From IMG/VR virus record IMGVR_UViG_3300030207_001921, positions 1 through 47,897 of that record: a DNA stretch of 47,897 nt. One strand, given 5' to 3'. Below, one piece after another: positions 3,264 to 35,353 of the stretch; the first letter of the stretch is position 1, and every line of letters begins with the position of its first letter. The notes under the pieces are model-generated. The model made no database searches and was not told the DNA's origin. It worked only from the letters and a program-made list of their open reading frames with translations. This stretch comes from a virus (taxonomy: Duplodnaviria; Caudoviricetes). The position numbers and the translations under genes are program-made.

Positions 3264-3472
3264 GTAGAGATAAAAAGAAAGAATATATATTCAGCCATAC
3301 TTTGTTAATTACACAAGAAACTACTGTTATGGCTAATACTTATGAAGAAGCAGAAAATACATTTTGTTCTGGTGGTGGCGATACAGATGATGTTGATTGT
3401 AGTAATGGTGATTGGGAATGTATACAAAATCCAGACATTTCATTCATTAAGGGGATGACTAATGAGAGTTAA
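3260..3472 (+). CDS. Hypothetical protein (70 aa)
   Basis: ATGA overlap, RBS. Confidence 0.7.
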   Translation: MSRDKKKEYIFSHTLLITQETTVMANTYEEAENTFCSGGGDTDDVDCSNGDWECIQNPDISFIKGMTNES

Positions 3473-3635
3473 AAACCTTATAAAGACTTTAAAAAAGTTT
3501 GACGATAATGATGAAGTAATTTTCTATCATTTGGATAACTACGACCTAAAAGAATGTCAGTTAGAAAGCATTTTAACAACTAATGATGGTTTAGGTGTTG
3601 AGATAACAATAGAGGAAGTGTTTGATGAAAGATAA
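3462..3635 (+). CDS. Hypothetical protein (57 aa, MRVKNLIKTLKKFD...), not in ORF track
   Basis: Read by hand; fills the gap in the operon; AAGGGG RBS. Confidence 0.65.
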   Translation: MRVKNLIKTLKKFDDNDEVIFYHLDNYDLKECQLESILTTNDGLGVEITIEEVFDER

Positions 3636-3897: not shown

Positions 3898-4089
3898 ATG
3901 AGTAAACCAAAAATGGAAATAGTATCAAATTTGGAAGGGGAAGATAATATTGTTTGGATAGATTTTAAAGGCAAAGAAATCAGAATAGAACAAGATAACT
4001 TTTATAACGAGGGAAAATTGATGATAACTGTTCACAACAAAGGTGAAGATTATCATGCAAAACTTTTAGTTGATAACGAAGATGATTGA
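3898..4089 (+). CDS. Hypothetical protein (63 aa)
   Basis: AAGGGG RBS. Confidence 0.7.
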   Translation: MSKPKMEIVSNLEGEDNIVWIDFKGKEIRIEQDNFYNEGKLMITVHNKGEDYHAKLLVDNEDD

Positions 4090-4300
4090 TCCATTTATAG
4101 ACGGAGATAGTAATAAGATAGAGTGTGCAAGTTGTGGCTCTATTGCAGAATTTACAGACAATGCAGATGAAGGAGATGGTTTTGGACAAGATTACTATTT
4201 CTGTTCAGATTGTAATAAGAACACAGTTCTTCACTATCAAAAGGTTTATGAAGAGCCTTATTGTGTAGAGGATGAACTACAAGAGCAGTCAGCTAAATGA
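4082..4300 (+). CDS. Small Zn-ribbon-like protein
   Basis: CASC...CSDC; start approximate. Confidence 0.65.
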   Translation: MIDPFIDGDSNKIECASCGSIAEFTDNADEGDGFGQDYYFCSDCNKNTVLHYQKVYEEPYCVEDELQEQSAK

Positions 4301-4350
4301 TAACGGGTGTTATTGTTTGGTGTTGAGTGCATAATTTTCGAGAGGAATTT

Positions 4351-4965
4351 ATGAATAATAAAATACGCGAACAGAAGTTCGTAATCAACCCGCCTAATTT
4401 CAATCTTGTGAAATTGCAGGTCGAGGGTTTAACTCCTTTAATCCAAAATAAGATGAAGGAGGCTTTGATAAAAGAAATGGAAGAAGTCCGTTCTGGTAAG
4501 GCTAATAAAGTTAATGCCAAGAGAACTGCTATCGATCCTAAAAAAGAGTATTTGAAATCTGCTTATACTCAGGATGATGGCACGTTTGGATTTCCTGCAA
4601 GTGCATTCAAACAATGTGCAGTTAGAGCAGGTAAGGCTTTAGGCTTGGCTATGACAGACGCAAGAACTTTGTTTTTCGTTCTGCCAAATGCCCCAGATGG
4701 AGAGTGTGTTTCTATTAAGTCTAAGAAACCAGTATTGAGGAAAGACCCAGTTAATGTAAAGACTGGTAAAGACCTCAGATTTAGACCAGAGTTTAGAAAC
4801 TGGTCAGCAGAACTCCTGGTAAAATATGACGCTGATAGAGTGACCATAGAGCAGATAGCTAATTTGCTTAATCATGGTGGTCAAACCGTTGGTGTAGGTG
4901 AATGGCGTCCAGAAAGGAACGGCACATTCGGTATGTTTACAGTTGGTTCTAGTAAGGTGGCATAA
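4351..4965 (+). CDS. Solo Cas7/RAMP-like RNA-binding protein (Vipr-like candidate effector)
   Basis: RAMP hallmarks: N-terminal strand VKLQVEGLTPLI, GFPASAFKQCAVRA (cf. iPgsslKGalR), C-terminal Gly-rich loop GVGEWRPERNGTFGMF; RBS GAGAGG; no other cas genes recognised. Confidence 0.75.
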   Translation: MNNKIREQKFVINPPNFNLVKLQVEGLTPLIQNKMKEALIKEMEEVRSGKANKVNAKRTAIDPKKEYLKSAYTQDDGTFGFPASAFKQCAVRAGKALGLAMTDARTLFFVLPNAPDGECVSIKSKKPVLRKDPVNVKTGKDLRFRPEFRNWSAELLVKYDADRVTIEQIANLLNHGGQTVGVGEWRPERNGTFGMFTVGSSKVA

Positions 4966-5456
4966 TGAGAAATAGCAGAATTAATTTAACTGCTGAACTC
5001 GTAAAAGTGCAACAAAGGTATGGGTCGGTTTCGGCTCATACCGTCTTACGAGAGGCAAAGAAGAAGTCTAGTCCTTTGCATAATTTCTTTGAGTGGGATG
5101 ATAGTAAAGCTGCTCAAAAGTGGAGAATGCATGAGGCTAGAATGCTAATAGCAACGGCTAAGGTCTATGTTAGTGAAGTTAGTCCTGAAACCGTAAGAGC
5201 TTTTGTAAGTTTAAAGACAGACGAGGGTAGACGATTTGTTGAAACTGCTGAGGCTTTAACTGATGACCAAATAGCTGCTGAGTTATTTGAAACACTTCTA
5301 AGAAGAATGAACAGCTTAGAGGAACAGTTAAGGCTTATGAACTTGTATAAAGGCTCATATAAAAATACACTAGACAATGCAAGAAAACCTCTGCAAAAAA
5401 GTCTAGGATCAAAAAAAGGTCAAACTACAACCACTCTAACACCTAGATTGGCTTAG
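4965..5456 (+). CDS. Helical partner protein coupled to the RAMP-like gene
   Basis: TAATG stop/start overlap; motif SPLHNFFEWDDSKAAQKWRxxEARxLI of a phage hypothetical family. Confidence 0.8.
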   Translation: MRNSRINLTAELVKVQQRYGSVSAHTVLREAKKKSSPLHNFFEWDDSKAAQKWRMHEARMLIATAKVYVSEVSPETVRAFVSLKTDEGRRFVETAEALTDDQIAAELFETLLRRMNSLEEQLRLMNLYKGSYKNTLDNARKPLQKSLGSKKGQTTTTLTPRLA

Positions 5457-5468
5457 TTGATCTTTTTG

Positions 5469-5518
5469 GTAGGTCGTGTGTCTTTCATTTTACCCCCTCG
5501 ATACATGACCTACTTTTT
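5469..5518 (+). terminator. 14-bp hairpin plus U5 (terminator or leader upstream of the array)
   Basis: GTAGGTCGTGTGTC / GATACATGACCTAC with 2 G-U pairs, 17-nt loop, then TTTTT. Confidence 0.6.
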
Positions 5519-5524
5519 CATTTT

Positions 5525-6114
5525 GGCAGTCGTGGTATCGTAAGGTGGGTTGCGTTAAGTTGGGGTTGGTTATGGCAGTTATGGAGACGCTAGTTGGCGC
5601 GAGTTCTGGTCCGTTGTGTTTAGGCAGTTGTCGTACGGAAAGGCTCGGTGGGTTCAGTTGCGGTCAAGGTCTGGCAGTCGGGGTTAGTTATGTCGTGTTC
5701 CGTTTGGGTGCGTCAGTTAAGGTAAGGCGGGTTTTGTTGGGGTCAGGCAGGTTCTGTCAAGGCAGTCCAGGTGGGGTTGGTTGCGTTCTGTCACGTTAAG
5801 GCAGTCGTGGTGAGTCTCGTCTTGTTAAGTTATGTCAAGTTATGGCAGTTACGGAGAGTCGCGTTATGTTGCGTTACTGTGCGTCTCGGTGTGTCTGGTT
5901 AAGGCAGTTATGGAGAGTTGCGTTCTGGTGCGTTTGTGCGCGTTGCGGTATGTCTGGTTATGGCAGTTGTGGTTCGGCGCTGCGTGTTTCGTTCCGTTTT
6001 GTTATGGCAGTCGAGGTTGCTCCAGGTGGCGCGAGTTAAGTCACGTTTAGTTAAGGCAGTCTAGGAGAGGTTTGTCAAGTTGTTGCAAGTTGAGTTATGG
6101 TCTGTTGGGGCAGT
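5525..6114 (+). ncRNA. Candidate guide-RNA array: 12 units of GGCA-(GKY-NN)7-11
   Basis: GGCAGT anchors at 5525, 5574, 5623, 5673, 5712 (GTCAGT variant), 5761, 5800, 5844, 5903, 5962, 6006, 6055 and 6109; 11 of 12 spacings equal 4+5n; hand count 92 of 107 pentamers start GTT/GTC/GGT/GGC. Confidence 0.8.
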
Positions 6115-6204
6115 TGTGGTGTTATACAACAAAGATTATAATTAGTTAGCTGGGGTCAATCCAACTCCCTATAGTGTATTTCATATTCGGGTTGGCTTCG
6201 GCTA
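6114..6204 (+). promoter_or_regulatory. Possible promoter followed by a 16-bp G-U-rich hairpin
   Basis: TTGTGG-N17-TATAAT (6114-6142); stem 6147-6162 / 6189-6204. Confidence 0.5.
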
Positions 6205-6221
6205 TTTTATGGAGAGATTTT

Positions 6222-6416
6222 ATGAAAGGGAAAATAAGTAAAAAATTCGTTTACGATAACGATAGAAGTCCAATAGAAAATTTTAACTTTTGGCTATCAG
6301 AGAATGAAAGTGAAAGGTTTTGGAATGAAGAAAAACCGTTATCTTACAAAGAGTCTGTCGATCTGTTTGAAAAACAGTATTGTGTCAAGATAGATGGAGT
6401 GAAGATTGATGAATAG
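6222..6416 (+). CDS. Hypothetical protein (64 aa, MKGKISKK...)
   Basis: GGAGAG RBS before the ATG at 6222. Confidence 0.65.
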   Translation: MKGKISKKFVYDNDRSPIENFNFWLSENESERFWNEEKPLSYKESVDLFEKQYCVKIDGVKIDE

Positions 6417-6420
6417 TTTA

Positions 6421-6999
6421 TTAGCTGTTATCTTCGTTATCATCCTGGCTGCTATTATCGATTTCATGAGTGGTGGCAGTAGTGGACACAAGTGATTCAT
6501 CATTTATTGGCACATCTATGATTTCTTGACCCATAAGTTGCTTTAGCCTATTTTCTATCTCTTCTCGTGACATCATATCGATCTTACCGAATCTAACTTC
6601 TTTTTTATCAACAACTAATCCACCAACTTTCAACAAACTATTCTGGGCTGCGATTGCAGCATTATATGATCCAGAGTCCAGAGCTTTGTCTCTTATGTCA
6701 TATAAATCTTTAACTGCTCTATCGTGATTTAATTCATACTTTTTTCTAACTTCCGACATTAAATATTTATATTCCGACAAAACATTTTCGTTTTTCATAA
6801 GTTTGTATGCCGACTGTCTAGCGTCTTTGTAACCAGATCTTTTTGCAGCTTCAACATAACTCATCTGTGGATTATTGACTATAGTCCAGACGAACACTTG
6901 TTGTCTGCGATTAAGTTTCTTATCTAGATCAAAATATTCGATAGGTGGGGTTTCTTCTTGATGAAGTATAGGCTCGAACTTGACTTCTGGTTTGGACAT
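6421..6999 (-). CDS. terS: Terminase small subunit
   Basis: LNRRQQVFV...EAAKRSGY...AYKLMKNENV HTH typical of Terminase_2-like TerS. Confidence 0.7.
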   Translation of the reverse strand: MSKPEVKFEPILHQEETPPIEYFDLDKKLNRRQQVFVWTIVNNPQMSYVEAAKRSGYKDARQSAYKLMKNENVLSEYKYLMSEVRKKYELNHDRAVKDLYDIRDKALDSGSYNAAIAAQNSLLKVGGLVVDKKEVRFGKIDMMSREEIENRLKQLMGQEIIDVPINDESLVSTTATTHEIDNSSQDDNEDNS

Positions 7000-7259
7000 A
7001 TACTCGTAATTCTATGGTTTCTTATTGTAGATGTAAAGTATGGTCTAGGAACTGATATTAGATGTGGCTATCTCTACTTATCTAATAAGTATATTCCAAG
7101 ATTATCACGCCAGATTATGTATCGTCAATACAAAAAAGCAATAAATATTAAATTAATTTCACATTCTCTGACAAAAATGAAAAAAATGTTTTTATTGTCA
7201 AAACCACTAAACATAAGGCTTTCATACGACAAGAAAAGTCTGACAAAAATAGACAATAA

Positions 7260-9188
7260 TCAAATATCCATATTTTTAAGGATATGTTCTATTACTGATA
7301 CTGTGAATCCATTACCCAACATTTTGTATGCTTGGGTGTTGCTTACTGGCATTTGGTAGTCTTCTGGTATTGTTTGTAGTCTACGACACTCTCGAACTGT
7401 TAGCTTTCTCCAGGTTAAGTCTTCTTTTACTGCTACTGAATCTTTGCTGACCGTTGTTATAGCATTTGATTTATCGTCTTTTCTTAGCTCTAACATTTGT
7501 TTTGTTTGATTAGCTACCGAACTGCCATCTCGATCCATTCTTTTACCATCACTATCATATGCTCTACCTCTAAGTGCACCACCAGAGATAACCTTTGGTT
7601 CTCTGTTGCCACCACCCATACTATTAAGAGTAGGAGCTTTACCGTCTGGGCTATAGACTCTTTTGAGTATATCGTGTCCATTTACATCACTAGCCACCCC
7701 AACTTGTTCTGGTTTAGTTTTTAACACTTTTGGTATGTTGTTAGTTCCGCCACCCCCATTACCAATGCCATTTAAGGTTGGAGATTTGCCACTCTTATCG
7801 TATAAACCACCACCATAATGATTTCCTTTTTCGTTAGCTAGTTTTATAGGTTTGTCGGATGATTTGGTTTGTATTTTTGGACTGTAGCTTGAAATAACTG
7901 TAGGAGATTTTCCTTCAGAAGAATACACTCTTCTTCTCATTTCATTATCCTTTAATATTTCTCTTGGTATATCGAATGCCTTTTTTGGTTTAGTTTCTAC
8001 TTTGGGAACTGTGCCTTTACCAGCATGAGCAGTAACTGTAGGTGACTTACCATCTTCACTATAAACTCTTTTTAATATATCGTGACCTTTTATGTCATCT
8101 AAACTACCTACTTGTAATGGTGTTTGTATTAACTTGTCTGGATTTGTCGAAGTTAAAGTGGGTGATTTGCCCTCATCTGAATAAACTCTTTGTGTGCTCT
8201 CAAATACTCCATCCCTAATCTCAAACTCTAGTAGTGGTATATCAAAACTATCGTCCTCTATAGATAGAAGTTTTTTTAGTTTTAACCAAACATCATCTCC
8301 AGGAATAGTAAAATGCTCGTCACTTCTAAACCAATGATCTACAAGTGTTTTTTTAATGTTAAGTTTTTCTGCTATTTGTTGATTTGTGTATTTACTTTTC
8401 TTCTTATGTGTTGATAGAAGTTTTTGCAATCCATCTATATCTACTGGATGTTGTCTTATCTTCACCCTCTCTACTAATTTTCCTACTTGTTTTGGTTTAT
8501 TTCTGACACCAGTCATGCCATATGTGTTCCAACCTTTGTAATCACGAGCTAATAATGTTGAGCCTTTTTTTATATTTTCTTTTAAAGCTACACATCCATT
8601 ATTACCTACTAAATCTGTTTCTCCATCTGTTTCCAAAATATCTCTTAACACTATACCCAGATCATCTGGTTGCTCTATGTTTGGAATGTTTGTCCAATAG
8701 AGTCGTTGTCTGCTTTGTGCACTTAAAAGTGAACTATTGATTAAAATAGGCTCAATGCGACCACCAAATAAATCTTGACCATCTGAATACTCTGGATAAC
8801 ATTCTGAGACTTGTTGTGTGATGACTTCTTGAAACTCCTTTTTCATTCTGACATTTTCAAGTAAAAAGTATTTAGGTTTAATAGCTTTCAGTAATCGCAC
8901 AAATTCAAAAAACAAAGCAGATCTAGGATCGTCAAATGCCAACTGTTTTCCAGAAAAAGAAAATCCCTGGCAAGGTGAACCTGCCACTATGAGAGTGACA
9001 TCTTTGTAGTCGTTTGGGTTTAACTTTGTTATATCTCCTACTTGAACAGTATCTGGAAAATTTGCTTGTGTGACTTGTATGCCGTATTTATCTATTTCAC
9101 TAGCATAATAGGTATCAACTTTTATGCCTAAATTTTTGAGTGCTATCTGGGTGCAACTCATCCCATCAAATAAACTTAAAACTTTCAT
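7260..9188 (-). CDS. DNA (cytosine-5) methyltransferase with repeated variable-region modules
   Basis: Motif I LSLFDG, catalytic GSPCQ, LLENV, QSRQRLYW, C-terminal LTVRECRRLQ...GNG. Confidence 0.92.
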   Translation of the reverse strand: MKVLSLFDGMSCTQIALKNLGIKVDTYYASEIDKYGIQVTQANFPDTVQVGDITKLNPNDYKDVTLIVAGSPCQGFSFSGKQLAFDDPRSALFFEFVRLLKAIKPKYFLLENVRMKKEFQEVITQQVSECYPEYSDGQDLFGGRIEPILINSSLLSAQSRQRLYWTNIPNIEQPDDLGIVLRDILETDGETDLVGNNGCVALKENIKKGSTLLARDYKGWNTYGMTGVRNKPKQVGKLVERVKIRQHPVDIDGLQKLLSTHKKKSKYTNQQIAEKLNIKKTLVDHWFRSDEHFTIPGDDVWLKLKKLLSIEDDSFDIPLLEFEIRDGVFESTQRVYSDEGKSPTLTSTNPDKLIQTPLQVGSLDDIKGHDILKRVYSEDGKSPTVTAHAGKGTVPKVETKPKKAFDIPREILKDNEMRRRVYSSEGKSPTVISSYSPKIQTKSSDKPIKLANEKGNHYGGGLYDKSGKSPTLNGIGNGGGGTNNIPKVLKTKPEQVGVASDVNGHDILKRVYSPDGKAPTLNSMGGGNREPKVISGGALRGRAYDSDGKRMDRDGSSVANQTKQMLELRKDDKSNAITTVSKDSVAVKEDLTWRKLTVRECRRLQTIPEDYQMPVSNTQAYKMLGNGFTVSVIEHILKNMDI

Positions 9189-35080: not shown

Positions 35081-35353
35081 TTATTTTTTTAATCTTTGTC
35101 TTCTTCTGTTTGCGTTACCAGCAATCATGCCACCCTTAGATTTTTTCATGATTCTACCGCCTTTGGACTTCTTCATCATCATTCCGCCCTTAGACTTTTT
35201 CATCATCATGCCGCCTTTGGATTTCTTCATCATTACGCCACCTTTAGACTTCTTCATGACTTTTCCACCTTTGGATTTTTTCATGACTTTACCGCCTTTA
35301 GATTTACGCATCATGCTGCCGTTTTTTGATTTTTTCTTGTAATGCCCTGGCAT
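35081..35353 (-). CDS. Highly basic tandem-repeat protein, (xxMKKSKGG)n
   Basis: Seven KSKGG in 27-nt repeats with synonymous variation; AGGAG RBS. Confidence 0.75.
   Translation of the reverse strand: MPGHYKKKSKNGSMMRKSKGGKVMKKSKGGKVMKKSKGGVMMKKSKGGMMMKKSKGGMMMKKSKGGRIMKKSKGGMIAGNANRRRQRLKK

Follow-up and report, generated by a model that had tools for sequence, protein, structure and literature searches.

VIPR systems were described only in 2026. They were defined by a vipr gene, a vap gene and an array in which GGY "or a related consensus" alternates with a variable dinucleotide (NN), with a 1-nt skip in reading and repression as the outcome (10.64898/2026.04.26.720920). The same paper gives the alternative motifs NNNGG, YNNNG and NNNNG, and the legend of its Fig. 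S18 also covers a staggered array layout, in which successive guides share 1 nt (10.64898/2026.04.26.720920). In the available parts of two later papers, 21 clusters are reported with non-canonical triplets, for example GAC, CAC, WGT and TGH (10.64898/2026.10.21.760802), and the VIPR of SUSP1 suppresses a satellite (10.64898/2026.10.15.759431). The mechanistic work, in the portions of this literature that are accessible, concerns the tailed type II systems of SUSP1 and P. fulva (PDB 36pp), while staggered arrays appear only as a diagram. Type II guides are ca. 100 nt long, with 9–16 YNNGG repeats and their own conserved 3’ tail/pseudoknot, from which the filaments assemble. The accessible text of the structural paper assigns the reading of G1 in SUSP1 Vipr to H17 and D177, that of G2 to R138 and W178, and a pocket for Y3 that includes R179 (10.64898/2026.04.26.720927).

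The DNA analysed here (the window) is a viral stretch of 47,897 nt that encodes the portal, terminase and capsid of a phage. Its capsid shares 67% identity with the capsids of Pelagibacter phages HTVC023P/027P and of phage DSL-LC04, and the read sets containing the locus were all marine. The locus consists of a vipr gene, an adjoining accessory gene and a staggered array, without a CRISPR array. Judging from protein, locus layout and repeat grammar, it is almost certainly a member of VIPR.

The vipr gene lies at 4327–4965 (+ strand). Its longest ORF is 212 aa, and the real start is probably a later ATG, giving 204 aa. A sequence search of the PDB with the product had one significant match, the SUSP1 Vipr protein (36pp, E 3.6e-10); a profile of 58 sequences matched the same protein at E 1.6e-13, and the gene also matches phrog_4652. 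The AlphaFold model (pLDDT 85.5) resembles the RAMP proteins Csm3, Cmr and Cas7, with Z 10.7 and rmsd 3.6 over 149 aligned residues against Csm3/Cas7. On sequence comparison and predicted fold, then, 4327–4965 encodes a Vipr protein, a RAMP homolog with an RRM core. Its thumb and G-loop residues are conserved: R138, D177, W178, R179 and K82 of SUSP1 align with R153, E192, W193, R194 and K103. No close Vipr was found in GTDB genomes, so no host is assigned.

The accessory gene (4965–5456, +) encodes a vap-like protein of 163 aa and matches phrog_15946. Its homologs adjoin vipr in 33 phage records, including Mycobacterium, Gordonia and Cy-LDV1 phages. The protein had no BLASTP similarity to SUSP1 vap1. 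With Foldseek the fold had no match at E<=0.001, winged-helix proteins being among the weak top rows, and a comparison with VIA matched the C-terminal helices only. A sequence search of the PDB had no match, and Atlas clusters were without names.

A leader hairpin of 15 bp precedes the array (5468–5514, +; z −5.3, with 0 of 200 shuffles folding as well). Some relatives have a hairpin of different sequence there and others have none. A possible 3’ hairpin follows the array (6151–6199, +), though its predicted fold is not significant (z −0.8); clearer hairpins follow the last anchor in the related loci L006, L019, L020 and L022. An Rfam search of 4000–7500 had no match, a tRNA search found none, promoter-like sites were at chance level, and no Cas family was found among 13 ORFs scanned with Pfam. 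The vipr module is accessory: one contig (L165) spans the flanking terS and the homolog of the gene at 2388, without a vipr hit. Elsewhere in the window, 7260–9188 (−) encodes a 642-aa C5 DNA methyltransferase whose long insertion contains internal repeats; relatives have divergent copies of the gene or none. The small ORF at 35081–35353 (−) encodes a basic product in which 9-aa repeats of the MKKSKGG type stand in tandem (27-nt period).

The array (5525–6113, +) has 12 units, starting at 5525, 5574, 5623, 5673, 5712, 5761, 5800, 5844, 5903, 5962, 6006 and 6055, with a closing GGCAG at 6109. Each unit is GGCA followed by 7–11 pentamers, 107 in total, and each pentamer is a fixed triplet followed by a variable NN. 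An earlier note, made from the sequence alone, had given the anchor spacings as 49, 49, 50, 39, 49, 39, 44, 59, 59, 44, 49 and 54 nt and all but one as 4+5n. These are exactly the unit lengths found, 11 of 12 equalling 4+5n; the exception, unit 3, carries one extra base, a 1-nt insertion that displaces a GGT. The GGCA anchor of that note is present in 11 units and absent from the one at 5712, which reads GTCA. A GGCA at 5746 was rejected as an anchor, being an in-register GGC-ag pentamer. The triplets are GTT (48), GGT (21), GTC (18), GGA (5), GGC (4) and others (11), and the previous hand count of 22 GGT and 10 others agrees with this, since one of the others is the GGT displaced by the insertion in unit 3. 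GTY accounts for 66 of the 107 triplets and strict GGY for 25, with a window consensus of G[G/T]Y.

The contrast between triplet and dinucleotide is strong. Entropy, computed over 82 pentamers from the nine in-register units of the window, is 0.61, 0.93 and 1.11 bits at the triplet positions and 1.85 and 1.95 bits at the NN positions. The autocorrelation of the array is 0.38, 0.45 and 0.42 at lags 5, 10 and 15, and the lag-5 value exceeds the maximum of 1000 shuffles (mean 0.29, max 0.37), as expected if the array has period 5. Runs of at least three G[G/T]Y-NN contain 85 pentamers (mean 3.3, max 20 in 2000 shuffles), and the 590-nt array contains 12 copies of GGCAG[G/T]Y, versus 4 in the remaining 47.3 kb.

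The same grammar is found in 29 of 31 IMG/VR loci that encode a Vipr 70–100% identical to that of the window (the clade). Of the remaining two, one is cut short (L018), and in the other, whose vipr is 83% identical (L012), 1.5 kb of downstream sequence had no detectable array. The arrays of L001 and L003 are copies of the window array, and these two loci may be the window’s own genome. The two outcomes that would have spoken against the earlier reading – NN positions no more variable than triplets, and a grammar not conserved at homologous loci – are thus both contradicted. The paralogy of units 8 and 9 and the recurrence of short words from unit to unit in the window would suit a decayed microsatellite or a coding repeat without a guide role. 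Such an origin is extremely improbable, given the position-specific entropy, the conserved NNs, the linkage to vipr in 29 of 31 loci, and unit lengths that break the reading frame.

VIPR systems with staggered arrays resemble this one most closely, and examples were found in Mycobacterium phage Brocalys, Gordonia phage Pipp and Cyanophage Cy-LDV1. These staggered VIPR loci are phage-encoded, have vipr and a homologous vap, and share the GGCA junction, the 1-nt slip and units of ca. 39–59 nt. In the window, GGCAG followed by TY corresponds to the published staggered layout at the sequence level, and the GGCA “anchor” is the 1-nt-overlap stagger already described for VIPR. The final G of GGCAG would also be the first G of the next unit, and a filament presumably could not continue into the next guide because of the 1-base register slip at each junction. 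There are also differences. Vipr identity to the three phages is only ca. 30%, and the window has 12 units in a single block after vap. Their arrays are GGC-based (81 of 95 triplets are GGY and 3 of 95 GTY). In Cy-LDV1, two staggered GGC arrays (L170:2620–2860 and 3425–3610) flank the vap homolog, in unannotated gaps.

The window shares with type II VIPR a homologous Vipr, with the thumb and G-loop residues kept, and the pentamer code. It differs in that its units abut without a tail and contain 7–11 mostly GTY pentamers, and in a vap without detectable similarity to vap1. As far as can be read from the sequence, the array is of the staggered kind and not type II, with a scaffold shifted towards GTY. 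Class 1 CRISPR systems with Cas7/Csm3 filaments are similar in having a RAMP fold and a multi-guide array, but the window has no 23–47 nt direct repeat, contiguous spacer or adjoining cas operon; its period is 5 nt and its constant element 4–6 nt. The Tas protein of TIGR systems carries a Nop domain. The protein adjoining the window array is a RAMP, and its period of 5 differs from the entropy period of TIGR arrays, ca. 18 nt according to the accessible text (10.64898/2026.10.21.760802).

The suggestion in the earlier note that GTY dominance marks a variant scaffold is borne out by comparison: GTY makes up 66 of 107 triplets here, 1 of 52 in SUSP1 and 3 of 95 in the three other staggered arrays. 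The shift is genuine and peculiar to the clade, yet it is only a change of frequency, since GTY is rare but present elsewhere. The SUSP1 array also tolerates HGY (11 of 52 triplets). The non-canonical VIPR-like arrays offer a further parallel, since in the available text they too have an altered fixed triplet beside a Vipr-fold protein. Each alternative motif of the discovery paper retains G in the second triplet position, where the window is U-rich. GTY or GKY is absent from the motifs named in the accessible text of one paper, whose full figure list may include it (10.64898/2026.10.21.760802). “GTY” does not occur in the supplement text of the discovery paper, whose figures may still show the motif (10.64898/2026.04.26.720920), or in the available part of the competition paper (10.64898/2026.10.15.759431). 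No 2026 paper with both “Vipr” and “GTY” was found, though figures may still show the motif, and no publication was found on marine or HTVC023P VIPR.

The clade contains 127 distinct units, of which 98 have a length of 4+5n and 29 break the rule. Dereplication left 72 in-register units with 734 pentamers, whose triplets are GTY (302), GGY (252), HGY (92) and GGA (33). Only 16 of the 734 pentamers lack G at both triplet positions 1 and 2 (Fisher p 1.5e-15), and the Vipr pocket may need a G at one of these positions and not at both. Triplet choice is tied to the neighbouring NN, with mutual information of 0.17–0.21 versus 0.10 ± 0.015 in shuffles, and this dependence may avoid false registers or G-runs. 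Among the internal pentamers of the clade, GGT never follows GC, and non-GKY triplets are frequent after GG.

Whole units appear and disappear. Seawater DNA contigs skip 99, 118 and 49 nt, which are exactly units 2+3, 8+9 and 11. L006 is 79% identical to the window in vipr, 73% in vap and 72% downstream at the DNA level, while its units 1 and 4 are letter-identical to those of the window. We infer that units have been exchanged between lineages; alternatively, whole units could be under strong selection. Units may be deleted, duplicated and swapped between phages through recombination at the GGCAGT junctions. In one read set (X9), a 316-nt contig with only an array variant had a depth of 462, versus 32 for the contig with the window vipr; the order of its units resembles that of L006, and it probably comes from a relative of greater abundance whose flanks are divergent, or else is an orphan array.

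A mechanism can be proposed for this locus. What was observed here is a protein of known family and fold, a conserved array grammar and the turnover of whole units; the assembly of filaments, the sequestration of triplets, the 1-nt skip and the repression of transcription are carried over by analogy from published work on SUSP1. The array would be transcribed and then likely cut at or near each GGCAG junction into guides. Each guide would be coated by Vipr, one subunit per pentamer, and its NN bases would pair with DNA while every third base, the wobble base, is skipped; genes of competing phages or satellites would likely be silenced. As a whole, this explanation is probably correct. Reading by a 1-nt skip is, taken separately, held with equally high confidence, silencing rather than cutting is likely on the SUSP1 analogy, and targets in rival mobile elements are probable at a slightly lower level. 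For processing, the skip rule and silencing, the support from this locus itself is statistical.

Contigs from RNA libraries contain parts of the array in two of four runs and vipr or vap in three of four. DNA carry-over is possible in both cases, and the contigs resolve neither strand nor ends of the array. The locus could be a VIPR whose array remains one long or partly processed multi-filament RNA, the GGCA being a register break and a recombination site. Four units that were folded had no Cas6-like hairpin (z −1.1 to +0.2), the locus yielded no identifiable nuclease, GTCA replaces GGCA at one anchor, and the 4+5n rule is broken by 29 of the 127 clade units, all of which would fit such an RNA. 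However, the legend of Fig. S18 gives individual processed vrRNAs from 1-nt-overlapping positions, with sequencing unstated (10.64898/2026.04.26.720920), GTT or GTC follows the anchor directly in 98 of 98 in-register units (in part a consequence of how anchors were defined), and the last NN of a unit drifts, like a trimmed end. The long RNA is unlikely, and individual guides are preferred.

Several statistics of the NNs would fit guide positions. Over 590 internal NNs from 72 unit clusters of the clade, NN frequencies correlate with sense codon positions 1–2 at r 0.87 (+62 bits over genome background), the reference being the genes of the window phage and not those of a target. In other frames r is 0.53 (antisense 1–2), 0.28 (positions 2–3) and 0.08 (positions 3–1), and by unit the sense frame is preferred in 44 of 72 and the antisense in 28. 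With base composition removed, r is 0.76 for antisense 1–2 (9 of 2000 shuffles) and 0.60 for sense 1–2 (111 of 2000), and negative in all other frames. Clade-wide, this is the correlation with codon positions 1–2 that the 1-nt-skip rule predicts. For the window’s own 83 internal NNs, a codon model (+7.6 bits) and a uniform one (+6.8 bits) are not separated.

Among orthologous units (18 clusters), 19 of 246 sites are variable for internal NNs versus 34 of 246 for triplet positions 2–3 (p 0.04), and the last NN varies at 17 of 36 (p 2e-8); with positions pooled, the rates are alike (47 of 354 for NN, 60 of 531 for triplets). In unit 12, all 20 NN bases are kept in four variants with differing triplets. 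Specificity would lie in the NNs of the 5’ and central parts of a guide. With the last NN of a unit probably uninformative, the information per unit is about 12–20 nt: guide-sized, as the earlier note had held, but below its 14–22 nt.

SUSP1 H17 corresponds to N41 in the window, and Asn replaces His across the window clade. More distant Vipr homologs keep a His at or beside this column in 24 of 25 cases, in the alignment as read by eye. The Cy-LDV1 Vipr likewise lacks the His, yet its array has GGC repeats, so N41 is not demonstrated to be the cause of the GTY shift. If recognition were altered, with another skip length or with triplets partly read, the SUSP1 code would not be transferable. 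The N41 substitution, the dependence of triplets on neighbouring NNs, and the lack of targets under the 1-nt skip (see below) would all agree with this. On the other side, the signal from codon positions agrees with a 3-nt step, residues of the thumb and G-loop are conserved, triplets interchange among GGY, GTY and HGY while the NNs are unchanged, Cy-LDV1 has GGC repeats without the His, and skips 0 and 2 did no better than the 1-nt skip in local scans. Altered recognition is quite unlikely, and the 1-nt skip is retained here.

A natural target of the window guides was not established. The window contains no self-target, the best match being 14/16. Exact 1-nt-skip scans of IMG/VR gave scattered matches: six for unit 1, two of them 18/18 and both on unrelated contigs; one for unit 8; one for the unit 9/L010 consensus, rejected as it lies on a 57% GC contig and ends at a stop codon; and six for unit 12, none of which agrees at the last NN. 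In metagenomes unit 12 had 63 matches, of which only two were 20/20, both implausible, and the largest recurring group of these presumably comes from a eukaryotic retroelement, which it resembles. The 20-nt pattern of unit 12 had only three matches in GTDB, which we take from their names to be unrelated Bacteroidota. These collection scans are weak negative evidence, since they allowed no mismatches and covered 4 of the 12 units (1, 8, 9 and 12), while the published method accepts 80% matches. A match to unit 12 at the start of a nuclease-like ORF (L109:1749–2120; 19/20, wobble register) is at chance level alone. On a giant-virus contig (L039), two further guides matched at >=85% versus 0 of 300 shuffles; this was treated as chance, because the contig was chosen post hoc among 13 loci and the host is implausible. 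A control scan with a Brocalys guide gave three matches, all unrelated.

Related phages gave no signal either. When 108 guides were compared with 1.6 Mb of related phage DNA (both strands), skips 0, 1 and 2 and the shuffles were equal, with two guides at >=0.9 under each skip and 0–2 in shuffles. Local scans of three isolate genomes (50 kb each) and of the clade’s own arrays had no excess over controls. The guides might instead aim at host chromosomal genes or repeats, or at regulation of the phage itself. Satellite vrRNAs targeting host REP sites are reported in the available text of the competition paper (10.64898/2026.10.15.759431), and no rival-phage target of the window guides was found here. 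This is nonetheless unlikely, as the window has no self match, the unit-12 pattern occurs at just three GTDB places, and rapid unit turnover suits an arms race. Rival mobile elements remain the preferred targets.

One guide of the clade has a more suggestive match. Conserved in L019–L026, it reads D-N-I-P-G-V-x-K-V under the 1-nt skip. Of 21 exact matches to this guide, 7 (L181, L188–L192 and L194; ca. five independent) fall in a phage 5’–3’ exonuclease motif, which we take to be the H3TH; the other 14 are unrelated. The variable NN of the guide falls on the variable residue of the motif, and the L188 protein has matches to proteins annotated as T5-like flap endonucleases. No convergence of companion guides was seen: of the five contigs searched, four had no clear excess of matches (15 versus a shuffle maximum of 13 in G004). 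The sole match of a second guide had two mismatches.

A broader picture would be a marine VIPR clade in which one G is enough for the scaffold, guides are tail-less, depend for specificity on their 5’ and central NNs and are traded whole across lineages, and some guides aim at conserved replication-gene motifs of rival phages. This combination is doubtful as a whole; if true, it would mean broad-spectrum, motif-level anti-phage targeting by pooled guides, and guide renewal without Cas1. With this locus come guides that are compact, tail-less and 12-plex, and its scaffold is a natural variant with which to probe what Vipr reads in the triplet. The variant is relevant to engineering, because less repetitive guides would be simpler to construct and to maintain stably. 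The population series – 127 units, deletions and shared identical units – makes the renewal of VIPR guides directly testable, and the locus places RNA-guided conflict between phages in a marine phage group.
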